In this document: one piece after another, positions 24,335-52,268 of the stretch
How the letters are laid out: each line of letters begins with the position of its first letter
How positions within the stretch are numbered: position 1 is the first letter of the stretch
NCBI GenBank assembly: GCA_035296385.1
Contig: DATHBB010000171.1
Location: 7,329-71,328, forward strand
Origin: Pyrinomonadaceae bacterium
Lineage (GTDB): Bacteria; Acidobacteriota; Blastocatellia; Pyrinomonadales; Pyrinomonadaceae
Reading direction: 5' to 3'
Length of the DNA stretch: 64,000 nucleotides
Position numbers and translations under genes: made by a program
The notes under the pieces: generated by a model
The model's input: the letters and a program-made list of their open reading frames with translations, nothing else
Database searches by the model: none
What the model was told of the DNA's origin: nothing

Positions 24335-24700
24335 ATGAGAATTACTCAAAGAAAAGGTGACATAGCAACTGCTCAGGCCATAGCAACCTTTACACGTTTG
24401 GGCTACGATGTGTCCATTCCGATAACGGAATCTGCTAAATATGACTTAATCGTTGATACGCCCGATGGACTCAGACGGGTACAGGTTAAATATAGCAGTG
24501 ATCGGAAAGTGGGTTTAAGAAACATCCACTCAAACGCGAGCGGGTATGTGGTGAAAAAATGTGAGCCGAACGCTTACGATTGGCTCTATATCCTCTATGC
24601 GGCGCAAACTGGATTTGAGGAATATCTGTTACCCGAATGTTTTGCGGGTCGAAACTCTGTAAGTCTCACCCCATATTCCAGGATTCTGATGGAAGGGTAG
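24335..24700 (+). CDS. PD-(D/E)XK endonuclease, I-Ssp6803I-like (homing-endonuclease-type)
   Basis: ATG 24335 gives MRITQRKGDIATAQAIATFTRLGYDVSIPITESAKYDLIVDTPDGLRRVQVKYS. This is the KG-(x)-AE ... G ... V ... P ... YDLI ... RVQVK pattern of the small PD-(D/E)XK family that includes the tRNA-intron homing endonuclease I-Ssp6803I. The ORF is visibly AT-rich relative to the flanks, and its stop codon lies inside the tRNA. Confidence 0.7.
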   Translation: MRITQRKGDIATAQAIATFTRLGYDVSIPITESAKYDLIVDTPDGLRRVQVKYSSDRKVGLRNIHSNASGYVVKKCEPNAYDWLYILYAAQTGFEEYLLPECFAGRNSVSLTPYSRILMEG

Positions 24701-24776
24701 CCTAATTGGTAAGGCAGTAGTCTTGAAAACTACCGCACGAAAGTGCTTGCAGGTTCGAGTCCTGTCCCTTCCGCCA
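24691..24776 (+). tRNA. tRNA-Ser (anticodon UGA), CCA encoded
   Basis: Manual cloverleaf. Acceptor GGAAGGG / CCCTTCC. 3-bp D stem GCC/GGC with loop TAATTGGTAA. Anticodon stem GTAGT/ACTAC with loop CTTGAAA. Long variable arm GCAC-GAAA-GTGC. T arm GCAGG-TTCGAGT-CCTGT. Discriminator G, then CCA. Confidence 0.9.
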
Positions 24777-31597: not shown

Positions 31598-34500
31598 TTA
31601 GGGCAGCGCCTCGATGTTGACGATGAAGCGGAACGCTCCGTCGCGCATCACGCCGAAGAGGAACTGCACGTTCATGCTCTGCCCGTTCGCCAGCGGCGTG
31701 CCGAGCGCCACGGTCGGCACCCTCAGGCTGCTGTTGATGCCGCCGCCGCGCGGCTGGTTGGGCGGTTCTTCAAGGGTCGTGCCTTCGATGGTCGTCGGCT
31801 GACCGTTGATCATGACGTTGTTGATGGTGGTTGAAGTGAGCGCCCGCAGGTCTGCCTGTCCGGGGCCGTCGCCCGGGCTGCCCAGAGTGGTTAAGTCAAC
31901 AATACGGAAGCGGAGGCGTGTCACCGCCGTGCCCGTGTTGTTGGTGATCTTGCGCCGGATGCTCAGGAAGCCGAACGCCGACTTGTTTGGGTCGCACGGA
32001 GGCGTGTCGGGCGCGCCGCAACCGAGTCGCTTGCGGTTCTCCCCGCCGCCGGGCGTCTGTGTCGGATCAACGAGGCCCAGACGCTCGAACTGGTTACGTT
32101 CAATCGGGCTGCTCCTGTTTTCCGGCCCCGGTGCGCCGAGAATCGTCGGCACGGTAGAGCCTGCCGTCGGTCCGGGGAACGGTATGTTGTCCACGGCGAC
32201 GAGCTGGAAGTCGGAGGCGTTATCTCCGGTGTCCTGCGGGAAGCTGGACGCCAGATTGATTTTGCGCACGTAGGCGTGCTGCACGTTCGGCCTGGTGTTG
32301 GCCGTGCGCGGCAGCCCGTTGCCCTCGATGTAGGGCCAGCTTCCGCCGTTGCCGACGAAGCCGACCGAGTCGATGGTGACGTTAAAGGTGTTGTCCACCA
32401 GAGCGATGCCCTGATTGTTCGGGAACAGGTCGTTGAAGGACAGCGACAAGTCGAGCGGCGCATAAGCCGCCAGACTGTAGCCCGAAGCCGTCGGACTCGC
32501 GTTGCTGTTGCCGATGAGGATGTGTCCTCGTCGCGGGATGGTTGTGCCCGCGGGCAGGGTCAGGAGCGAATCGTTGGAGCCGCGCCTGAGTGCGTAGCCG
32601 CTGATGCTGATCGTCGCATCCGTGTTGTTGTACAGCTCGACGTACTCGTCGTTCACGTTGGACGTGGTCGGAGTCGGACTCGGGCTGGCCGGAGGCGGCT
32701 GAACGACGCCTGACTGGCGGAACTCGCTGATGATCACCTCGCCCGGCTGAGCCAATCTCGGGGTTGGCGTCGGCGACGGCGAGGTGCTGCCGCTGTTGCA
32801 GATGGCGAGCGTGTAGTTGCCGCCGCCGTTGACGACAGTTTCATGAACGACGACGACGTAGGTAGCCCCCGCCGGAACCAGGACCGAATAAGAGGCCGGT
32901 ATGTTGGCCGCCGGACTGGTGCCGAGGTCGCCCAAGTAGTTGGCCGACTTGTTGGCCGGATCGTAAGCGTTCAGGTAAGCCGCGCTGAACATGTTGGCCG
33001 TGGTTGCCTGAAGCGTGATCCGGATGCAGGCCGCCTGGCTGCTCGTGTTCTGGAAGGTGTACTGGTCGTAGCGAACCGTCCCGGGTCCGGCAAACTCGCC
33101 GGGGAACGGCTTCGTGCTGCAGGCGCTCGGATTCGCGTCGCGGTTGAGGCGGTTGGTTTGCGTCATGTCGCCGGCGGCAATGCTGCCGTTGATCGGCGGA
33201 GTGACGGCCTCGCAGGCGAGGTTTTCCCGCGCAGTGAAATTCGCGTCGGTGACCGGGCCTTGCAGGTTGTTGTAAGTGCGGCTCGGCGGCGTGTACGTGT
33301 TGTTGCTGCCGGAAGGCGTCACGGTGTAGTTGCCGCCGCGCGTCAGGTTCGGGAACGAGTAGAAGCCGCCGCCGGAAGTGACGGTGGTTCTCGATTCCGT
33401 GCCGGTGAGCGTGATGGTAATGCCGTCAATGCCCGCCGCGCCGTTCTCCGTGGTGACGCGCCCGCTGATGCTCGCCTGCGCGAGGAGCGAGAAGTTGGCG
33501 TCCGTAACGTTCGCGTTCAGGTTGTTGTAAGTGCGACTCGGCGGCGTGTAGTCGAAGCCCGGCGTCGTCGGCGTGACGGTGTAGCTGCCGCCCGCGACGA
33601 GGTTCGGGAACGAGTAGTTGCCGTTCGCGTCGGTGTTGGTGGTCGCGGTGGTCGTGCCGCTCAAAGTGATCTGGATACCGGCGACGCCGTTTCCGCCACT
33701 GTCGGTCACGCGACCGCTGATGGAGACGGTGGAGACGCCGAAGCGCGAGCAGGGCTGCGCGTTCGTCGAGAGTAGAACCGTGTCGATGCGCGCGCCGGAC
33801 TGTCCGGGCGCGATGGTGTTGGCATCGGCGATGACCGTCCACTTGAGTTGCACGCTCTGGCCGTTGGCCGTCGGCGGCAAGTTGACGACCGAGGTGATGA
33901 ACTCCGGATTATCCGTCGTACCGGCGGAAACACCCGTCCACGCGTTGCCTTGGTTGATCGAGCCGTTGTAACCGCCGCTGACGAAACTGCCGCCCGCCGC
34001 GATGATCTCTCTGAACGGCTGAGCGCCGATCTTGATGTGCAACTGCATGCCGTCGAAGTTGTCTTCGAGGTTGTAGAGGTTGCGGAAGCTCACGCGCGCC
34101 TGTCCGGTGTTGACCGGGAAGGTCGGCGAGATGAGATCGGCTGTGCCGGCGTTGGTCGGGTTCGTGGTGAACGCCGAGTTGGGCGGGGTGTCCGATTTGG
34201 CGGAGTTGGTCTGCCAGGGCATGCCCGCGCCGGAGCGCTGCGTCGTCCAACCGGCAGGCAGCGCCGGAGGCGTCACGCCGTCGAAGTTCTCGAAGGTGGT
34301 GAGCGCTGCGGGCTGACCGACGTTCAGGAAGTACGTGTAGGTGATCGGGCCGAGACTGCTCTCGACCAAGATGCTCAAAGGAATCGCCGCGCCGCAAGCG
34401 GTCTCGACGGGCACGGTGTAGTCGATGGTCTGCGAATCGGTTTCGCCGGGCGTGACCGTGCCGTAGTTGGCTACGTTGTTGGCGCCCGTGATGGTGGCCG

Positions 34501-36940
34501 TCGTGTTATCAGCGTTGTGCGCGCACAGGATGTTGGTGAGCGGGATGCTGATGCGGGCGGTTTCGCCCGGTTCGACGACGCCGTCGCCGTCGCCCGTCTG
34601 TTCCGTCGCGGTGACGTTTCCGAGCCGCAGGTTCACGGGGTCAAAACTTTCCGTGACGCTCGTACCCGCGATGCTCGCGCGGAAGCCCGCGCCGCGAATG
34701 CGGAAGCCTTCCCAGATTTCGAGTTCGTCCGCGCCGGCGGCAGCCGCGCAGTTGGCGGCGAGAATCGAATCGCGCCCCTGGAGTTGCGTCGGGCTGGCGG
34801 GGTCGAGTTTCATGCCGTCGGTAACCATCTGGAGCATGCGATTGTTGCCGCCCAGAAGGCCGTATTTCTCTATGAGTTTGGCGCGCACTTCCCACAGCGC
34901 CGTACACCACACCTCGCCCTGATTATGGACCTGGGTGGCCGAACCCGGGTTCACGGGGAAAGCCGCGTCGCTGACGTTGATCTGCGCCGGGTCGATGTCG
35001 GCGAGGGTGAGCGGGTTGTGCGATCTGCCGTTGGCGGCGACGGCGGATTTAACCGCGTAGGGGAAACGACGGATGCCGCGATAGTAATCGCGCGTGTCGT
35101 AAGCGCCCATCGGGTAGAGTTGCTTGCCGTCGGTGTCCATCTTGCCGATGACGGAGTTGATCGAGAGGCCGTAGAAGTCCGACCAGCCTTCGCCCATGCC
35201 CGCAGCCGCGTCGGTGTTCAGGCCGAGCGCGTTGGCGTGCAGGCGGTTCGACGTGCCGTGCGTCAACTCGTGGATGATGACATCCTGATCGAGGTCGCCG
35301 TCACGATTGGTTTGCCCCGCCGCCGTGAAGATGTACATCTGCATGCGACCGGGAGTGCCGTCGGGCGGGGTCAGGAAGTTGGCATTGTTCGTGCCGGAGA
35401 AGTCCTGCGCCTGCGCGAGGACGGGGTCGCCGCCCACGCCGCCGCGATTGAAGTTGTCAACCTGGAAGTTGCGCGCGCCCTCGACGAAGCCGAGGTCGTA
35501 GAGGCGGTCGTGATAGCGGTTCGACCAGAAGAAGAGGTTGACGACCGCGCCCATGCGGAACTGTGCATCCGAAGGGTTGGTAGAACCAGCCGGATCAGCC
35601 GAGCCGTCGGGACGGTAGGTGAAATTAAAGACGCGATTCGTCGCGGTGGAGCGCCCGCCGTCCGGGTCGGACATGGTTGGGGGGTCAATGCCGTCCGGGG
35701 CGACGAGGTCTAAACCGGCGTCAACGTTGTTGCCGGTCGTCGAAGGGTTCGGGCCGGCGGAATCGGGAATCCAGCCGAGCAAGTTGGATTCGTGCTCGCT
35801 CACGAGCGTGATGTTCGTGCGCATGATGCCCGGCGCTTGCGGGACGGGCGGCGCGATGGCCTGCGGCGGACCGAGCGGATTGATCGGCGTCGGGCTGTCG
35901 TCGTTGTAGACGTTGTAGGTGACGGCCTGCGTCTGATCCTGCGTCATGTTCTTGCGCCAGAGCAGGACGCCCGTGTTGGCGTCGATGACCGAGTAGTAGG
36001 CGGTTTCAGAGTCCCACAAGAGCATCGAATAGGCGAGCACGGCGTGGCCGGGCACGAGCGGGAAATAGACGAGCGAGGTCTTGGTCTCTTCCTTGAGCGG
36101 GCCGCGCGAAACGACCTGCTTGCCGTTATCGTCTGTGCCGATGACGGAGAGGGTGCTCGCGTCAACTTTGACGTTGATGCTCCTGATGCCGGCGGCGACT
36201 GCGTCAGTCGCGTTGAGGCCGGGCGTAGAACTGAGCCTTTCGGAGCGCAAGCCCGCGGCGAGCAGGCCGGTCGTGCGCACCAGACGCCCATCCGGCGTCA
36301 AGATGCCGCGCACGTAGCCCTGAAACACGGGGATGCCGTTGATCTCCTGCTCCAATTCGACGAACGCGAGATTGCCCGACGGATTCGCGTAATCGGAATA
36401 TTTCTTGAGTTGCGACGCCTGCGCCCGGGTCAAGCCGTAGAGCGCCGCGTTTTCGGTGATGAAACCGCGCAGGGCCGATTCCCTCGGGCCTCCGACACCG
36501 GACGCCTGAGAGGCCGGTAGCTCGCCCGCGCCTTCGACCCGCACGATTTCCGGGACGCTCAAGGCTTCATTGTAAACGACTTTCAAGCTGGGCACGCGCG
36601 AAGCCAACTGCGCCTCTGCCGCACTCATGGCTCGCTGCACGGTGACGGCTGATTCGCGCTGGCTCTGCGTGGCGACGGCCTGCTTCTGCGAACTCACCGC
36701 AAGCTGTGCGCCTTTCTGCTTGAGAGCCACGTTATCAACATCCTCCGGGGCGCTCGCGCTCCGCAGTCTGATGTCGTAATTTTCGAGGCCGGTACGGGTC
36801 GTGGGGGCGATCTCTTTACCGCGAGTTTTATCGCTTTTGCGGTTGCCCTGGCTGGAAGCAACCGGGCCGAAGTCGAACACTACGGCTCCCATGGCGACGG
36901 CAATGCTGAGGAGCAGCAGCCATCGTTTAAAGTTCCTCAT
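31598..36940 (-). CDS. Giant secreted multidomain metalloprotease, M36 (fungalysin) family catalytic domain
   Basis: Signal peptide, propeptide-like N-terminus, HELTHGTSNRL (HExxH) and GEGWSDF as in M36. Two CarboxypepD_reg-like repeats (SISGRVTDSGGNGVAGIQITLSG ... and SISGRVTTENGAAGIDGITITLTG ...). A lamin-tail-like segment (VIISEFRQSG ... NDEYVELYNNTDATISISGYAL). Confidence 0.85.
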   Translation of the reverse strand: MRNFKRWLLLLSIAVAMGAVVFDFGPVASSQGNRKSDKTRGKEIAPTTRTGLENYDIRLRSASAPEDVDNVALKQKGAQLAVSSQKQAVATQSQRESAVTVQRAMSAAEAQLASRVPSLKVVYNEALSVPEIVRVEGAGELPASQASGVGGPRESALRGFITENAALYGLTRAQASQLKKYSDYANPSGNLAFVELEQEINGIPVFQGYVRGILTPDGRLVRTTGLLAAGLRSERLSSTPGLNATDAVAAGIRSINVKVDASTLSVIGTDDNGKQVVSRGPLKEETKTSLVYFPLVPGHAVLAYSMLLWDSETAYYSVIDANTGVLLWRKNMTQDQTQAVTYNVYNDDSPTPINPLGPPQAIAPPVPQAPGIMRTNITLVSEHESNLLGWIPDSAGPNPSTTGNNVDAGLDLVAPDGIDPPTMSDPDGGRSTATNRVFNFTYRPDGSADPAGSTNPSDAQFRMGAVVNLFFWSNRYHDRLYDLGFVEGARNFQVDNFNRGGVGGDPVLAQAQDFSGTNNANFLTPPDGTPGRMQMYIFTAAGQTNRDGDLDQDVIIHELTHGTSNRLHANALGLNTDAAAGMGEGWSDFYGLSINSVIGKMDTDGKQLYPMGAYDTRDYYRGIRRFPYAVKSAVAANGRSHNPLTLADIDPAQINVSDAAFPVNPGSATQVHNQGEVWCTALWEVRAKLIEKYGLLGGNNRMLQMVTDGMKLDPASPTQLQGRDSILAANCAAAAGADELEIWEGFRIRGAGFRASIAGTSVTESFDPVNLRLGNVTATEQTGDGDGVVEPGETARISIPLTNILCAHNADNTTATITGANNVANYGTVTPGETDSQTIDYTVPVETACGAAIPLSILVESSLGPITYTYFLNVGQPAALTTFENFDGVTPPALPAGWTTQRSGAGMPWQTNSAKSDTPPNSAFTTNPTNAGTADLISPTFPVNTGQARVSFRNLYNLEDNFDGMQLHIKIGAQPFREIIAAGGSFVSGGYNGSINQGNAWTGVSAGTTDNPEFITSVVNLPPTANGQSVQLKWTVIADANTIAPGQSGARIDTVLLSTNAQPCSRFGVSTVSISGRVTDSGGNGVAGIQITLSGTTTATTNTDANGNYSFPNLVAGGSYTVTPTTPGFDYTPPSRTYNNLNANVTDANFSLLAQASISGRVTTENGAAGIDGITITLTGTESRTTVTSGGGFYSFPNLTRGGNYTVTPSGSNNTYTPPSRTYNNLQGPVTDANFTARENLACEAVTPPINGSIAAGDMTQTNRLNRDANPSACSTKPFPGEFAGPGTVRYDQYTFQNTSSQAACIRITLQATTANMFSAAYLNAYDPANKSANYLGDLGTSPAANIPASYSVLVPAGATYVVVVHETVVNGGGNYTLAICNSGSTSPSPTPTPRLAQPGEVIISEFRQSGVVQPPPASPSPTPTTSNVNDEYVELYNNTDATISISGYALRRGSNDSLLTLPAGTTIPRRGHILIGNSNASPTASGYSLAAYAPLDLSLSFNDLFPNNQGIALVDNTFNVTIDSVGFVGNGGSWPYIEGNGLPRTANTRPNVQHAYVRKINLASSFPQDTGDNASDFQLVAVDNIPFPGPTAGSTVPTILGAPGPENRSSPIERNQFERLGLVDPTQTPGGGENRKRLGCGAPDTPPCDPNKSAFGFLSIRRKITNNTGTAVTRLRFRIVDLTTLGSPGDGPGQADLRALTSTTINNVMINGQPTTIEGTTLEEPPNQPRGGGINSSLRVPTVALGTPLANGQSMNVQFLFGVMRDGAFRFIVNIEALP

Positions 36941-46662: not shown

Positions 46663-47088
46663 TTAGCCGTTCTGCAGCGCCGAGCGCAGATACCAACTGA
46701 ACCCGATGAGCACGACGAAGAGTGCCACCATCATGATGAACAGCCACTTGTTGCGCCGTCCCGTCCTGATCTGCCAGATGCCGCTCACGAGGCTGCCGAG
46801 TCCGAAGACGAGCACCATGCCGAACAGCGCGAGGATGAGTTGCGCTTGCTGTGGCGTGCCCGTGAAGCGCGCCCCGCCCGTGCTCTCGCCCGCCTGTAGC
46901 AAGAGCGGCGCGACGTTGTAGGTGATCGTCCCCATCAGCCCGATGAGGAACACGCCGATCAGCAATTGCATCCAGCCGAGGCGGCGCACCTGCTTCGCCG
47001 TCCGCAAACGCTTCCCGCAATTCGGGCACTTGCCGACCGTCTCATTAGTAACGTGTCCACAACTAAAACAACTGCTCGTTTCTTCCAT
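46663..47088 (-). CDS. Zinc-ribbon membrane protein
   Basis: CFSCGH ... CPNCGK zinc ribbon followed by four hydrophobic helices. GGAGGT lies 10 nt upstream of ATG 47088. Confidence 0.6.
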   Translation of the reverse strand: MEETSSCFSCGHVTNETVGKCPNCGKRLRTAKQVRRLGWMQLLIGVFLIGLMGTITYNVAPLLLQAGESTGGARFTGTPQQAQLILALFGMVLVFGLGSLVSGIWQIRTGRRNKWLFIMMVALFVVLIGFSWYLRSALQNG

Positions 47089-47355
47089 CACAACTTCTAC
47101 CTCCACAGAGAGAGAGCCTGCGCGCGCGCCCGTCTCTTCGCGGACGAGACGGGCACGCGGGCGTTATCAGTTGAGCTACAGTCCGAAAGTTAAAGAAGTT
47201 GGACGTGCGGCTAAAAGAAGACCGTTCATACGGCGGCGGAAAAGCGCGGGGAAGATAACGGCGCGCCGGGGCGCTTGTCAATAGTTATAAAAAACTGGGA
47301 GAGGTTCGGTTCGAAGGTGGACGCTCAAGCCCCGCCCTTTCGCGCCCTCGACGCT

Positions 47356-47598
47356 TCAAACTCCCGGGCGTTGCAAGGCGCTTCTGACCGCCGCCAGCAC
47401 TTGTTCGTCCGTCGGCAGCTTGAGCCAACTTCTCTTCAAGATGAGTTTGTCGTCCAGCCAGACGGAGAACTCCCCCATGCGGCCCTGCACGAGTCGCGGC
47501 TCGATCCCCGTTTCACTTCTGACGAGCGCCGCCACACGGGCGGCACGTTCACCATAAGACTTTCAAATTTTGCAATGGCGAATGACGATCTCTCTCAT
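47356..47598 (-). CDS. SelW/Rdx-family selenoprotein candidate (in-frame TGA at codon 12 read as Sec)
   Basis: Hand translation: MREIVIRHCKI-U-KSYGERAARVAALVRSETGIEPRLVQGRMGEFSVWLDDKLILKRSWLKLPTDEQVLAAVRSALQRPGV. It aligns with Rdx proteins (I-x-YC-x-x-C/U ... RA ... G-x-G-x-F-x-V ... dg-x-li ... FP). The TGA at 47563..47565 is at the second redox position. GAGGTGA RBS lies 5 nt upstream of the ATG. The gene is 34 nt downstream of the quinone oxidoreductase gene. Confidence 0.7.
47526..47546 (-). promoter_or_regulatory. SECIS-like hairpin downstream of the in-frame UGA
   Basis: Minus-strand RNA GUGCCGCC CGUGU GGCGGCGC: 8-bp stem, 5-nt G/U-containing loop. The stem starts 17 nt after the UGA codon. 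Confidence 0.55.
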
Positions 47599-47631
47599 CC
47601 GTGTCACCTCTCAAACAGTCGCTTTCAAATC

Positions 47632-48663
47632 TCAAGGGACGAGCACGAGTTTGCCGAACTGCGCGCGGTCTTCCAAAAGTTCGTGCGCGCGTCGCGCTTC
47701 GGCGAGCGGGAGCGTCTGCGAAACGACGGCGCGAAGCTGCCCGCGCTCTACGAACTTCATGGCGTCGAGCAGTTCGGCCTTCGACCCCATGAACGAACCG
47801 AGCAGGCTGACGTGGCGGTAAAAGACTTGCCGGAGGTCTGTGCGCGCGTCGTAGCCGCTCGTCGCGCCGCAGGTGACGAGCCGCCCGTTTCGTGCCAGCA
47901 CGCTGATAGAACCCGGCCACGTCTCCGCGCCCGTATGCTCGAATACGACTTCGACGCCCTTCTTGTTCGTCAGACGCCTCACTTCTTTCGGCCAGTCGGC
48001 GTGCGTGTAGTTGATCGTCTCGTCCGCGCCTAGCGAGCGCGCCTTTTCGAGTTTCTCGTCCGAACCGGCGGTGGCGATGACGCGCGCCCCCCGCAGTTTC
48101 GCGATCTGGATGCCGATTGATCCGACGCCGCTCCCCGCCGCGTGGATCAGAACGTCCTCGCCCGGCTCGACGCGCGCCCGCGAGACGAGCATGTGCCACG
48201 CCGTCACCGTCACGAGCGGCAACGCCGCGGCCTCTTCCCAACTCAAATCCGACGGCTTCGGGACGACGTTCACCGCAGGAGCCGAGACGAACTGCGCGTA
48301 GCCACCATCGCGCCGGTAGCCGAGTATGTCGTAGCTCGCGCACAGATTGTCCAGCCCGCGCAGGCACTCCGCGCAGTGCCCGCACGACACGCCCGGCTGC
48401 AACAACACCTCGTCGCCCGCGCGCACCCAGTCAACCACCTCTCCCACCTCGCGCACCACGCCCGCGATGTCGTTCCCCAGAATGTGCGGCAGCGGAATCT
48501 CTATGCCCGGCAGCCCCTTTCGCGCCCACACGTCCAGATGATTCAAAGCGCACGCGCGCACCTCGACCAGCACCTCGTTCGCCCTCGTGCGCGGCTCAGG
48601 CGCGTCCTCGACATACTCCAACACCTCCGCCCCGCCGTGTTGCCTGAAGATGACAGCTTTCAT
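47632..48663 (-). CDS. Zinc-type alcohol dehydrogenase / NADPH:quinone oxidoreductase family protein
   Basis: MKAVIF ... GGAEVLEYVE ... LNHLDVW, a Cys-rich structural zinc loop (CGHCAECLRG ... C) and the Rossmann motif HAAGSGVG. Confidence 0.9.
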   Translation of the reverse strand: MKAVIFRQHGGAEVLEYVEDAPEPRTRANEVLVEVRACALNHLDVWARKGLPGIEIPLPHILGNDIAGVVREVGEVVDWVRAGDEVLLQPGVSCGHCAECLRGLDNLCASYDILGYRRDGGYAQFVSAPAVNVVPKPSDLSWEEAAALPLVTVTAWHMLVSRARVEPGEDVLIHAAGSGVGSIGIQIAKLRGARVIATAGSDEKLEKARSLGADETINYTHADWPKEVRRLTNKKGVEVVFEHTGAETWPGSISVLARNGRLVTCGATSGYDARTDLRQVFYRHVSLLGSFMGSKAELLDAMKFVERGQLRAVVSQTLPLAEARRAHELLEDRAQFGKLVLVP

Positions 48664-48938: not shown

Positions 48939-49433
48939 ATGAGCAGGATCATCGTCGGTGTGTTGGGGCCGGGCGAGGGTGCGATGGACGAAGCCGTGCG
49001 CGCGGCGTTCGAGTTGGGGCAGTTGATCGCGGCGGAGAATTGGGTGTTGCTGACGGGCGGGCGCGACGCGGGCGTGATGGAGGCGGCCAGTCGGGGCGCG
49101 AAGTCGGCGGGCGGTTTGACGGTCGGGATTTTGCCTTCGGAGGATGCGCGGGGCGCGTCGGAGTTCGTGGACCTACGCATCATGACGGGCATGGGACAGG
49201 CGCGCAACAACATCAACGTGCTCTCCAGCCGACTCCTCTTTGCCTGCGGCACGGGCGCGGGCACGGCCTCCGAGATCGCGCTCGCCATCAAAGCGAAGAA
49301 GCACGTCATACTGCTTTGCACGGACGAGGCGAGCGAGAAGTTTTTCAAGTCGTTGGGGAAACAACGCGTGTCTGCGGCAGACGATCCGAGCGCGGCGATT
49401 GAGCTGGCGAGAAAGTTATTGATGGAACAATAG
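48939..49433 (+). CDS. TIGR00725-like (SLOG/LOG superfamily) protein
   Basis: IIVGVLGPGEG ... LLTGGRDAGVMEAASRGAKSAGGLTVGILP ... ACGTGAGTASEIALAIK. Confidence 0.8.
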   Translation: MSRIIVGVLGPGEGAMDEAVRAAFELGQLIAAENWVLLTGGRDAGVMEAASRGAKSAGGLTVGILPSEDARGASEFVDLRIMTGMGQARNNINVLSSRLLFACGTGAGTASEIALAIKAKKHVILLCTDEASEKFFKSLGKQRVSAADDPSAAIELARKLLMEQ

Positions 49434-49476
49434 CCCGACAGCGTGCGAACCAAGCAACTTCAAGCGTTAATTATGA

Positions 49477-49577
49477 TTCACCGCAGAGGCGCAGAGCAGA
49501 ACCGCAGAGGGGGCGCAGAGAAGAAGTTAATCTTTTCTCTGCGCCCCCTCTGCGCCTCTCTGCGTCTCTGCGGTGAA
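49477..49577. repeat. Palindromic element H10 (TTCACCGC ... GCGGTGAA family)
   Basis: ttcaccgcagaggcgcagagcagaaccgcagagggggcgcagag ... ctctgcgccccctctgcgcctctctgcgtctctgcggtgaa. It lies between convergent genes. Confidence 0.9.
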
Positions 49578-49601
49578 GGGTTTTATTCCTTTCAAACAAA
49601 C

Positions 49602-50561
49602 TTAACCCGCAACGACGGCTACTTCGTCGCACGTCGTTTCTTGAGCTGTACCTTCCACCTGCTGCCGCGCGTGATACGAGGAACGCGTGAGCGGGCTTGA
49701 TTCGACGTGATGAAAGCCCATCTCCATGCCGATCTCGCGCCAGCGCGCGAACTCGGCGGGCGTCACATATCGTTCGACGGGCAGGCGGCGCGCGTGCGGT
49801 TGCAGGTATTGGCCGATGGTCATGATGTCGCAACTTGCGGCGCGCAAATCTTTCATCAACTCGACCACTTCGTCGAACGTCTCGCCGAGGCCGACCATGA
49901 TGCCGCTCTTGGTGAGCATACCGCGTCGCTCCACGTCGCGGCGACGCGCTGCGCGTTCAAGGAGCGTCAGCGTCTGCCCGTACTTCGCGTCGGGGCGCAC
50001 GCGGCGGTAAAGACGCGCGATGGTTTCGGTGTTGTGGTTGAGCACGTCGGGTTGCGCGTCGAGCACCGTGTTGAGCGCGGCCTCGTCGCCGTTGAAGTCG
50101 GGAATGAGGACTTCGATTTTGCACGCGGGATTCGCGGCGCGCACTTCGCGTATGGTCTCAGCCCAGTGCGCCGCGCCGCCGTCCGTTAAGTCGTCGCGGT
50201 TAACGGAGGTGATGACGGCGTAGGCGAGATCGAGATGGCGCACGGCTTCGGCGACGTGGCGCGGCTCGTCCTTATCGAGTTCGCCCGGCTTGCCTTTGCC
50301 GACGGCGCAGAAGCCGCAATGGCGCGTGCAGATGTCGCCGCCGAGCATGAAGGTGGCCGTGCGGTCAGACCAGCACTCGAAGATGTTCGGGCAGCGCGCC
50401 TCCTGACAGACCGTGTGCAGATTCAAACCCTCGATCAACTTCAAGACGTGGTTCTGATTCGACGGGTCGCCGATGCGAATCTTCAACCAGTCGGGCTTGC
50501 GTCCCGTCGGGCGTCCCGCAGGCGTTGGAATATTGCTGATGACTTTTAACTCGCGGCTCAA
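49602..50561 (-). CDS. lipA: Lipoyl synthase
   Basis: CQEARCPNIFEC auxiliary cluster motif and the radical-SAM motif CTRHCGFC. Full-length LipA-like sequence. Confidence 0.95.
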   Translation of the reverse strand: MSRELKVISNIPTPAGRPTGRKPDWLKIRIGDPSNQNHVLKLIEGLNLHTVCQEARCPNIFECWSDRTATFMLGGDICTRHCGFCAVGKGKPGELDKDEPRHVAEAVRHLDLAYAVITSVNRDDLTDGGAAHWAETIREVRAANPACKIEVLIPDFNGDEAALNTVLDAQPDVLNHNTETIARLYRRVRPDAKYGQTLTLLERAARRRDVERRGMLTKSGIMVGLGETFDEVVELMKDLRAASCDIMTIGQYLQPHARRLPVERYVTPAEFARWREIGMEMGFHHVESSPLTRSSYHARQQVEGTAQETTCDEVAVVAG

Positions 50562-50605
50562 TAAATTCGCTCCACAAATGATTTTCGACTTTTTCGACTG
50601 TGCGG

Positions 50606-51616
50606 CTATTTTAACATTTGCTCCGCACCGTTGTCGCTTCCAACGCCGTCGCCGCCGATACTGACAGCGAGCCGCGCGAGCACGTCCGCATCAACGTTCC
50701 CGCCCGTGAGCACGACGCCGATGCGACGCAGACCGCGCGGGAGTTTGTCGAACAACACGGCGGCAGCCGCCAGCGCGCCCGTCGGCTCGACCAGTATTTT
50801 CAGACGAAACAGCAGGAACTTCATCGCCTCCGCCGTCTCCGCGTCTGTGACCGTCAACACGTCGTCCGCGTTTTGCATGACGAAGTGAAAGGTCAGCGCG
50901 CCCGGCGTCTGCACGCGCGCGCCGTCGGCGATGGTCGGCGGCGGCGGGATCGTGACGCGCTCTCCCTTCAAGAGAGATTGCCGCGTGTCGTCGCCCGTCG
51001 CGGGTTCGACGGCGAAACAGCGAATCCGCGCGTTCAACCCTCGCGCCGCCGTGCTCGCCCCTGCGAACAAACCGCCGCCGCCGCAGGGCACGACAATCGC
51101 GTCGAGGTCTTGAACTTCTTCCATCAACTCAAGCGCGCACGTTCCCTGCCCCGCCATCACATGATAATCGTCGTAAGGCGGCACGAGGACGAGACCATTG
51201 CGTTCGGCAACGTCGCGCGCGACCCGTTCGCGGTCGTCGCGCTGCCGGTCGTAGAAGACGACTTCCGCGCCGTAGCCTCTGGTGGCCGCCACCTTCGCGC
51301 GCGGCGCATCCTCCGGCATCACGATACAAGCGCGCGTGCCCGCATCGCGAGCCGCGAGCGCGACGGCCTGCGCGTGATTGCCGGACGAAAAGGCTGCGAC
51401 GCCGCGCGCGCGCTCCAAGGCGTCGAGCGCGAGAATCTTGTTCGTCGCCCCGCGCATCTTGAACGCACCGGCGCGTTGAAAATTTTCGCACTTGAAAAAA
51501 ACTTCGCGCCCGCCGCCCGCCGCACTGTTGAAAGCGCGCGAAGACATAACCGGCGTGCGGTGCACGCGCGATGCGATGCGGCGCTCGGCCTCGCGTATGA
51601 ATTCAAGCGTGAGCAT
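50606..51616 (-). CDS. PLP-dependent threonine/serine dehydratase family protein
   Basis: FKCENFQRAGAFKMRGA (PLP lysine motif), SSGNHAQAVA and a GGGGL glycine loop. Its start overlaps the lipB 3' end by 14 nt. Confidence 0.85.
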   Translation of the reverse strand: MLTLEFIREAERRIASRVHRTPVMSSRAFNSAAGGGREVFFKCENFQRAGAFKMRGATNKILALDALERARGVAAFSSGNHAQAVALAARDAGTRACIVMPEDAPRAKVAATRGYGAEVVFYDRQRDDRERVARDVAERNGLVLVPPYDDYHVMAGQGTCALELMEEVQDLDAIVVPCGGGGLFAGASTAARGLNARIRCFAVEPATGDDTRQSLLKGERVTIPPPPTIADGARVQTPGALTFHFVMQNADDVLTVTDAETAEAMKFLLFRLKILVEPTGALAAAAVLFDKLPRGLRRIGVVLTGGNVDADVLARLAVSIGGDGVGSDNGAEQMLK

Positions 51617-52268
51617 ATACCTCTTCCGTCGCCGTCATGTCGAAGACTTCCGCGAAGCGCGCGACGATGCGGTCTTCCACTTCGCGCATGTCGAGTTCGC
51701 GGCCTAACAGTTCGTGCATAGAGGTGACGGGTTCTCCCTCGCAAGCGATGATCAGATCGAAGAAGCTGAGGTCGGTGTTGACGTTTAAGGCGAAGCCGTG
51801 CGTCGTCACCCAGCGCGAGATGTGTACGCCGATGGCGGCGACCTTGCCGCGCGTCGTGTGCACGCCCGTCAAGCCCTTGATCCTGAAACCCTCGATTCCG
51901 AAATCCGCGAGCGCGCGAATCAAAGCCTCTTCTATTTCGCGCACGTAGCGGTGAACGTCCTCGCGGTCGGGACTCAAATTGATGATCGGGTATCCGACGA
52001 GTTGACCCAGGCCGTGATAAGTCGCTTTGCCGCCCCTGTTGGTTTCAAAGAGCGTGATGCCGCGCGACGCCAACGCGTCGGGCGAAGCGAGCACGGCGGA
52101 CTCTTCGGCGCGACGACCGAGCGTGAGGACGTGCGGGTGTTCGACGAGCAGAAGCGTGTCCGCGCACGCGCGCGCTTTGAGCGCGGCCTCGGTCTGCTTC
52201 TGAATTTGGTAGGCCGCGCCGTACTCCATACGTCCGAGGCGGCGAACCCGTAGCGTTCTGTTCGGCAT
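51603..52268 (-). CDS. lipB: Octanoyltransferase
   Basis: Start at MPNRTLRVRRLGRMEYGAAYQIQ. Motifs LLLVEHPHVLTLGR, RGGKATYHGLGQLVGYP and GVHISRWVTTHGFALNV. Confidence 0.9.
   Translation of the reverse strand: MPNRTLRVRRLGRMEYGAAYQIQKQTEAALKARACADTLLLVEHPHVLTLGRRAEESAVLASPDALASRGITLFETNRGGKATYHGLGQLVGYPIINLSPDREDVHRYVREIEEALIRALADFGIEGFRIKGLTGVHTTRGKVAAIGVHISRWVTTHGFALNVNTDLSFFDLIIACEGEPVTSMHELLGRELDMREVEDRIVARFAEVFDMTATEEVYAHA

Follow-up and report, generated by a model that had tools for sequence, protein, structure and literature searches.

We found that the minus strand of a 64,000-nucleotide (nt) stretch of Pyrinomonadaceae DNA (contig DATHBB010000171.1; the whole stretch is called the window here) very probably carries a genuine selenocysteine (Sec)-encoding gene of the Rdx (SelT/SelW/SelH) family at 47356..47598, and that the doubt that remains attaches to the Sec machinery, which stayed unseen. 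Reading the sequence directly, we identified an 80-codon frame (47598..47356) that is interrupted by a single in-frame TGA at codon 12 (47563..47565), the predicted Sec codon. The frame opens at an ATG (47598-47596), closes at a terminal TGA (47358-47356) that the gene coordinates take in, and is preceded by a Shine-Dalgarno-like GAGGTGA (47604..47610) placed 5 nt before the ATG; GAGGTGA or GAGGTAA is also found 5′ of the ATG in related loci. The frame translates as MREIVIRHCKI*KSYGERAARVAALVRSETGIEPRLVQGRMGEFSVWLDDKLILKRSWLKLPTDEQVLAAVRSALQRPGV*, and the predicted product, MREIVIRHCKI-U-KSYGERAARVAALV...QRPGV, would be a SelW-like protein of 79 residues plus Sec at position 12, with Cys9 (codon TGC, 47572..47574) as the first residue of a CxxU redox motif. 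The full gene is hidden from ordinary gene calling because of its internal TGA stop, and the list of open reading frames (ORFs) gives for this frame only a truncated version, a 59-residue GTG ORF (47356..47535, minus strand) whose start falls within the hairpin described below. The original prediction, made from the letters of the window, had proposed this hidden minus-strand frame with its GAGGTGA ribosome-binding site and its single TGA, and it was borne out by the sequence, the frame and the ORF list, the translation that it quoted being an exact match to ours. TGA is the stop of 16 of the 50 predicted genes in the window, including the oxidoreductase gene directly upstream and the Rdx gene's own end; it is an ordinary stop here, and a dedicated signal is therefore needed for codon 12.

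We then assigned the product to a family by profile and by fold. With U written as C, as in all profile scoring unless stated, the product matched PF10262 (Rdx) at 27.1 bits (cut-off 22.6, E = 5e-6), and the match ran from residue 4 to residue 72 over profile positions 2-73 of 74, spanning the TGA. This match is real but not strong; seven of the 13 aligned relatives also match Rdx, the best at E = 4e-10. Sequence searches of the PDB gave little, as single-sequence phmmer returned zinc-finger noise only and the profile search nothing but MIEN1, a weak match (E = 1.4) that placed C9 and U12 over the two Cys of the CEPC motif. A comparison of folds was therefore needed, and we modelled for it the natural full-length protein P0005, a relative that shares 64% identity with the window protein and carries Ser where the latter has its predicted Sec. 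The AlphaFold2 model of P0005 (predicted local distance difference test score of 84) has the topology b1-[CxxS]-a1-b2-b3-b4-a2, with the elements E4-8, H13-30, E35-38, E44-48, E51-55 and H64-80, and by this model C9-K-I-U12 would sit on the loop between b1 (E4-8) and a1 (H13-30). When the model was compared with the PDB by Foldseek, the top 23 matches were all Rdx/SelW-related, with template-modelling (TM) scores of 0.71-0.79 at ranks 1-22, and thioredoxins ranked lower. The solved Rdx proteins 3DEX (SAV_2001), 2OKA, 2OBK, 2P0G, 2OJL and 2FA8 superposed at TM 0.75-0.79 and a root-mean-square deviation of about 2 Å over 76-79 columns; unlike the window protein, these are CxxC (Cys) forms, and they are only 19-28% identical to P0005. 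MIEN1/C17orf37 (2LJK) and mammalian SelW (mouse, 2NPB) were also among the structural matches, with the Rdx fold and a shared CxxU/CxxC register, although the similarity to mammalian SelW was weaker (TM 0.59). Eukaryotic SelW differs further in that its Sec insertion sequence (SECIS) lies in the 3′-untranslated region and is of a different type. Taken together, the profile match, the modelled thioredoxin-like fold and the CxxU/CxxC motif assign the predicted product to the Rdx family, as had been proposed from its likeness by eye.

Related loci were read in the DNA and compared at codon 12. L003 has the same sequence as the window; L001, L002, L004-L008, L017, L020 and L021 encode proteins of 58-82% identity, and L013/L014 and L015/L016 are more distant. 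TGA stands at the same position in L001, L002, L004-L008, L013, L015, L017, L020 and L021. Fourteen distinct TGA-form sequences, mostly from Pyrinomonadaceae metagenome-assembled genomes (MAGs), share the ATG, the frame and the TGA and show no frameshift or further stop, and the frame before the TGA follows the patterns (M)xEIVIRHC-x-x, MKIIIRHCLT or MARVSIRRCST. Every TGA-form locus that was read thus has an intact frame before and after a conserved TGA, and the frame-disrupted close relatives that the original prediction had named as a possible sign of a pseudogene were not seen. Full-length relatives of 75-103 residues were recovered by a HMMER search with P0005. Seven of them, at 29-45% identity to the window protein, carry Cys where the window gene has TGA (CRTC, CAVC, CSVC, CPLC twice, CPVC and CPIC), so that the proposed alignment with Cys-containing Rdx homologues does place Cys on the TGA. 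In the DNA, the codon at the Sec position is TGC in both L022 and L023, whose proteins (P0053 and P0045) have precomputed Rdx matches. Cys9 is invariant across the TGA-form relatives, and in the Cys forms its column holds the first Cys of CxxC. A Sec/Cys pair is the classical criterion for identifying bacterial selenoproteins (PMC1088965), and here the UGA is aligned with Cys in homologues and its flanks are conserved.

The close clade consists of TGA forms plus one Ser variant, and no Cys form was found in it. In the Ser variant, MDEIVIRHCQL-S-KSY, TCA replaces TGA while the hairpin is intact; it occurs in L011 (10001-10249; GCA_033851515.1, JAWWOP010000052.1) and L012 (1-249; Logan SRR24474205), which are separate assemblies, though the same reads may underlie both. 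Its nearest relative is L007, which has TGA. The variant may have exchanged Sec for Ser, giving a CxxS form, possibly after the ability to decode Sec was lost, or it may carry an inactivating mutation. Among more distant relatives that were seen as protein representatives only, the Sec/Cys column holds Trp in P0064 (CEHW) and P0042 (WMVW) and Asp in P0054 (CYKD) and P0073 (CPLD). Trp may stand there because a gene caller applied another genetic code to a TGA, and Asp would make the protein a non-redox variant.

Protein searches returned about 35 clusters of 53-64 residues which, where named, are recorded as 'hypothetical protein' of Pyrinomonadaceae/Acidobacteriota MAGs and once as 'sulfur carrier protein ThiS'. 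These public calls, P0001 and P0002 included, all begin at a GTG or TTG within or shortly past the hairpin. The ThiS name, given by the Joint Genome Institute to a truncated call of 56 residues (P0025; L021 10001-10171), is a misannotation, because the DNA has MNEIVINYCKL-TGA-KSY upstream. The actinobacterial matches L009 and L010 from a genome scan were rejected as unrelated membrane proteins that have LVQGRMGE in common. A metagenome collection, scanned with a protein pattern and with a DNA pattern (NNN at the Sec codon), gave no matches, evidently because it is without these soil contigs.

To see how the frame evolves, we compared substitutions before and after the TGA. Pairwise amino-acid differences among eight distinct sequences amounted to 6.8% in codons 1-11 against 34.5% past codon 25, the 11 codons preceding the TGA being the best-conserved part of the protein. 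In ten sequences, the ratio of nonsynonymous to synonymous substitution rates by the Nei-Gojobori method (dN/dS) was 0.24 for codons 1-11, 0.34 for codons 13-24 and 0.35 for codons 25-77, and dS was 0.25 in the N-terminal part (codons 1-11), 0.40 in the hairpin part and 0.70 in the C-terminal part. These results show that purifying selection acts in a single frame before and after the TGA, across sequences that have diverged far enough for a pseudogene to have decayed. The low dS of the first 11 codons (47566-47598 in the window, minus strand; the same codons in L001-L021) suggests a nucleotide-level constraint on them as well; no conserved RNA structure involving the codons before the UGA was supported in the comparison of relatives. 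Between genomes (L004-L017) whose oxidoreductase and lipoyl synthase neighbours are 89-96% identical, the Rdx protein is 58-82% identical, and by these identities the small predicted selenoprotein outpaces its neighbours in evolution, except at its N-terminus and in the hairpin.

A predicted upper stem-loop of a bacterial SECIS (bSECIS) lies at 47526..47546 on the minus strand, within codons 18-25 (R-AARVAA-L). Its 8-bp stem pairs GUGCCGCC (47546-47539) with GGCGGCGC (47533-47526) around the loop CGUGU (47538-47534) and starts 17 nt after the UGA. The original prediction had placed a SECIS-like hairpin with an 8-bp stem exactly there; the full stem is present in the window, but only its inner 6 bp (47544-47539 with 47533-47528) are conserved among relatives, in which the outer pairs are not kept. 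An extended lower stem (47516..47558, minus strand) was predicted by minimum free energy (MFE) from the window sequence only, and relatives fold differently outside the core. Taken alone, the hairpin has a free energy of -14.8 kcal/mol (z = -2.9). The published bSECIS consensus calls for an apical loop of 3-9 nt, an upper stem of 4-16 bp, an MFE <= -7.5 kcal/mol, a G among the first two loop positions (G[G|U]) and a UGA-to-loop distance of 16-37 nt (PMC13188914). We found a loop of 5 nt, CGUGU (CGGGU in L008), with G at position 2 followed by U or G, a UGA-to-loop spacing of 24 nt (21 nt in L015), and a stem of 8 bp in the window and 6 bp in its conserved part, so the hairpin satisfies every published constraint. 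A Rfam scan of 47300-47700 at E <= 10 gave noise only and no SECIS model.

The hairpin is kept in all TGA-form relatives, and 91.7% of the core-pair cells are paired. We compared the codons that write it with the usage in 34 confident genes of the window, in which Arg is encoded by CGC (67%), CGT (10%) and CGG (10%) and Val by GTC (53%) and GTG (34%). In the hairpin, across the 16 sequences compared, Arg is CGT or CGG and never CGC, and Val is GTG or GTA. Given the AARVAA peptide and the codon usage of the window, a G[G/U] loop on a complete 6-bp stem would be expected in about 4% of cases. Substitutions in the stem keep pairing as G-U wobbles (C to U), and one of the stem changes is non-synonymous, from Ala to Val (GCC to GTC), in L008 and L021. 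This rare codon choice together with the pairing-preserving changes indicates that the hairpin is selected at the RNA level. The two Cys forms read in DNA, L022 (610-852; P0053) and L023 (353-610; P0045), which are ~40% identical to the window protein, carry GCC GCC CG(T/G) GTG GCG GAG 15 nt after their Cys codon.

Based on these results, we propose that translation would start at the ATG at 47598, and that the stem-loop GCCGCC-CGUGU-GGCGGC, placed inside the coding sequence 24 nt past the UGA at codon 12, would recruit SelB carrying Sec-tRNA(Sec). Selenocysteine would be inserted at UGA 12 and translation would go on, yielding the C9-K-I-U12 motif on the b1/a1 loop. The Cys/Sec pair would be expected to cycle between a selenenylsulfide and a reduced form, as in a thiol/selenol oxidoreductase, and the gene is probably co-transcribed with the NAD(P)H-dependent oxidoreductase gene upstream.

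Several results weigh against a Sec-decoding gene. First, selA, selB, selD and tRNA-Sec were not found by tblastn with E. coli SelA, SelB and SelD or by ARAGORN (for tRNA-Sec) in the 64-kb window or in ~220 kb of related loci, the only sequence that could be searched; the sole tblastn match of the Sel queries was a generic GTPase in an unrelated locus. Second, the family scores are modest. When the Sec position is scored as X instead of C, the PF10262 score falls to 21.3 bits, slightly under the cut-off of 22.6, and the NCBIfam models TIGR02174 (CXXU_selWTH; 23.7 bits, cut-off 34.2) and NF041051 (SelTWH_Campy; 26.9 bits, cut-off 88) are not reached. The product is thus best treated as belonging to a divergent Rdx subfamily outside the narrower TIGR02174 and NF041051 models, as judged from its sequence, and annotation pipelines probably missed it because it falls below these narrower cut-offs. 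Third, the hairpin in its GC-rich context of 61-81 nt is no better than shuffles (z = -0.3 to -1.0, window sequence), and the covariation score is modest, at 0.184 against 0.134 in shuffles and attained by 20 of 500 shuffles; little covariation is seen because the core pairs hardly vary. Irrespective of codon choice, the Ala-Ala...Ala-Ala part of the AARVAA peptide sets four of the six pairs. The related genomes are also fairly close, their neighbouring proteins being 89-96% identical, and conservation is in part shared ancestry. Finally, L022 and L023 still have the loop and all but one of the six core pairs, so that the hairpin is not exclusive to TGA forms and is by itself no proof of Sec decoding. 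Its presence in the Cys forms fits a 'fossil' SECIS that would have been retained following Sec-to-Cys replacement, in line with the view, put forward in the literature, that SelW-like proteins originally contained Sec (PMC1794560). Alternatively, a hairpin retained in Cys forms looks like one with a possible role beyond Sec insertion.

Sec-decoding organisms do occur among the Acidobacteria: three selenoprotein families were counted there in a 2006 survey (PMC1794560) and three selenoprotein genes are known in Occallatibacter riparius (PMC12013277), so that the precedent is one at the level of the phylum only. Our literature search on selenium use in Pyrinomonadaceae gave nothing relevant. 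A screen of the window for other genes with an in-frame TGA returned only adjacent in-frame genes or antisense shadows; this screen is weak, as it overlooked the Rdx gene itself because of the low G+C content at third codon positions of its N-terminus.

We also considered whether the UGA is read through as something other than Sec, by near-cognate Trp or Cys insertion or by a lineage-specific decoding, in an organism without Sec machinery, with the hairpin only slowing the ribosome or being a relic. The failure to find Sec machinery in the loci searched, the Trp at the codon-12 column of P0064 and P0042 and the hairpin still present in Cys forms would all agree with this. However, TGA ends 16 of the 50 window genes, both genes of the pair included, so there is no general reassignment, and the Trp calls are known from protein only and may themselves be TGA under another code. 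Moreover, both the loop sequence of the hairpin and its spacing agree with the SelB-type consensus, rare codons maintain the hairpin, and a CxxU aligned to CxxC is the classical bacterial selenoprotein signature, SelW-like proteins included (PMC1088965). We therefore regard non-Sec readthrough as improbable.

Still less probable is an arrangement in two parts without recoding, in which MREIVIRHCKI would be an 11-codon leader peptide, the hairpin a regulatory or attenuator element, and the product the 59-residue protein from the GTG at 47535. All public gene calls begin at such a GTG or TTG within or just past the hairpin, synonymous sites in codons 1-11 and in the hairpin have changed less than those elsewhere (dS of 0.25 and 0.40 against 0.70), as would be seen for an RNA or leader element, and Sec insertion cannot be the job of the hairpin in the Cys forms. 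The Rdx profile and the predicted fold, however, need residues 4-24 (b1, the CxxU loop and the start of a1), and the match crosses the TGA, whereas the 59-residue product would be without b1 and the redox motif. In addition, in full-length relatives of the Cys and Ser forms one unbroken ORF encodes the whole protein, the same N-terminus included, and the GTG has no Shine-Dalgarno sequence and is buried in the stem. The idea that the locus is a pseudogene, in which one base change turned TGC or TGT of the second Cys into TGA (a codon that can mutate, as the TCA in L011 and L012 shows), is effectively refuted, since the TGA is found in 14 distinct sequences without frameshift or extra stop at a dS of 0.70 elsewhere, dN/dS downstream of it is 0.35, the distant L013 and L015 have it amid other gene neighbourhoods, and protein identities of 58-82% exclude one clonal population. 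Altogether, the selenoprotein interpretation of the original prediction is supported by the Rdx profile, the bSECIS constraints, the intact relatives and the Cys aligned to the TGA.

SelW-like CxxU proteins are an established bacterial selenoprotein family, the most abundant one in the Sargasso Sea data, and their genes are routinely misannotated since the UGA is taken as a stop (PMC1088965). The window gene resembles these genes (PF10262, TIGR02174) in length (about 75-90 residues), in its predicted thioredoxin-like b-a-b-b-b-a fold with CxxU between b1 and a1, and in the layout of its signals, an in-frame UGA and, past it within the gene, a SECIS hairpin whose small apical loop contains a G; it is likewise misannotated as a truncated hypothetical protein. 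In contrast to known bacterial SelW-like proteins, its clade has a signature of its own, IRHC-x-x-U-KSY...AARVAA, scores under the TIGR02174 and NF041051 cut-offs, and is known so far from Pyrinomonadaceae/Acidobacteriota MAGs and soil metagenomes alone. The hairpin also resembles that of the E. coli fdhF type and the bSECIS model, as it lies directly past the UGA in the ORF, has a small loop with G-U and keeps a spacing within 16-37 nt. Unlike in fdhF, with which it has no sequence similarity, the conserved part is the 6-bp stem and the 5-nt loop only, a putative SelB site. A divergent and, from the sequences at hand, apparently Sec-only Pyrinomonadaceae clade is thereby added to the known SelW-like family.

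The practical consequence is the correction of a systematic error: in Pyrinomonadaceae/Acidobacteriota MAGs and soil metagenomes, no fewer than 35 protein clusters are recorded as hypothetical proteins of 53-64 residues without their catalytic N-terminus, and the clade is missed by current NCBI models. The gene also implies selenocysteine decoding by these abundant soil bacteria, and it illustrates neatly how otherwise rare codons can embed a SECIS in the coding of a conserved peptide, AARVAA. It does not change the understanding of how selenoproteins work and will be no surprise to a specialist, for whom it is a useful annotation fix.

The gene directly upstream (47632..48663, minus strand) ends in TGA and encodes a 343-residue medium-chain, zinc-alcohol dehydrogenase (ADH)-like, NAD(P)H-dependent oxidoreductase with ADH_N and ADH_zinc_N domains. 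It had been called a quinone oxidoreductase, a name that fits only loosely: within the medium-chain dehydrogenases/reductases (MDR), the protein scored 246.3 bits against the NCBIfam PIG3 quinone-oxidoreductase model (TIGR02824), under the cut-off of 296.8, and only the general ADH_N and ADH_zinc_N models were passed. The gap from its stop to the Rdx ATG, given as 34 nt before, measured 33 nt (47599-47631). In all ten Pyrinomonadaceae-type loci that could be read there, a gap of 33-54 nt separates the oxidoreductase gene from the Rdx gene that follows it. In the window, the stretch between the two genes showed neither a promoter-like nor a terminator-like site, and co-transcription is therefore plausible; a promoter-like site lies past the Rdx gene at 47281-47252. 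A look for a terminator after the Rdx gene gave a hairpin at ~47309-47361 without an adjacent T-run. By its position, the oxidoreductase is a probable operon partner of the Rdx gene.

The redox pair that had been suggested for these genes stood as synteny within Pyrinomonadaceae, but it is missing from the distant TGA forms L013 and L015, which have different neighbours and no adjacent oxidoreductase. Because the genomes that have the pair are close (oxidoreductase and lipA proteins 89-96% identical) and L013 and L015 differ, the adjacency is lineage-level synteny and not proof of a functional pair. That the conserved MDR oxidoreductase and Sec-Rdx genes form a dedicated two-component system, in which the NAD(P)H enzyme would reduce the selenenylsulfide or be served by it, is a conjecture that we consider unlikely. 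If it were true, the MDR enzyme would be a first defined physiological partner for bacterial SelW-like proteins.

Further upstream on the same strand are lipB (51603-52229), a gene for a pyridoxal phosphate (PLP)-dependent enzyme (50606-51616) and lipA, encoding lipoyl synthase (49602-50561), and the interval from lipA to the oxidoreductase gene holds a SLOG/LDcluster4 gene (48939-49433) on the plus strand. This arrangement (lipB, PLP enzyme, lipA and SLOG; window 48939-52229) is conserved in L003, L011, L017, L020 and L021. Downstream on the minus strand, a gene of 141 residues (46663-47088), with weak matches to a zinc ribbon and to the membrane protein DUF2298 that are both under their cut-offs, is preceded by the promoter-like site at 47281-47252 and adjoins the Rdx gene in most relatives. 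Elsewhere in the window, we identified a very large ORF of 1780 residues (31598-36940, minus strand), and the only tRNA, a tRNA-Ser(UGA), at 24691-24776 on the plus strand.

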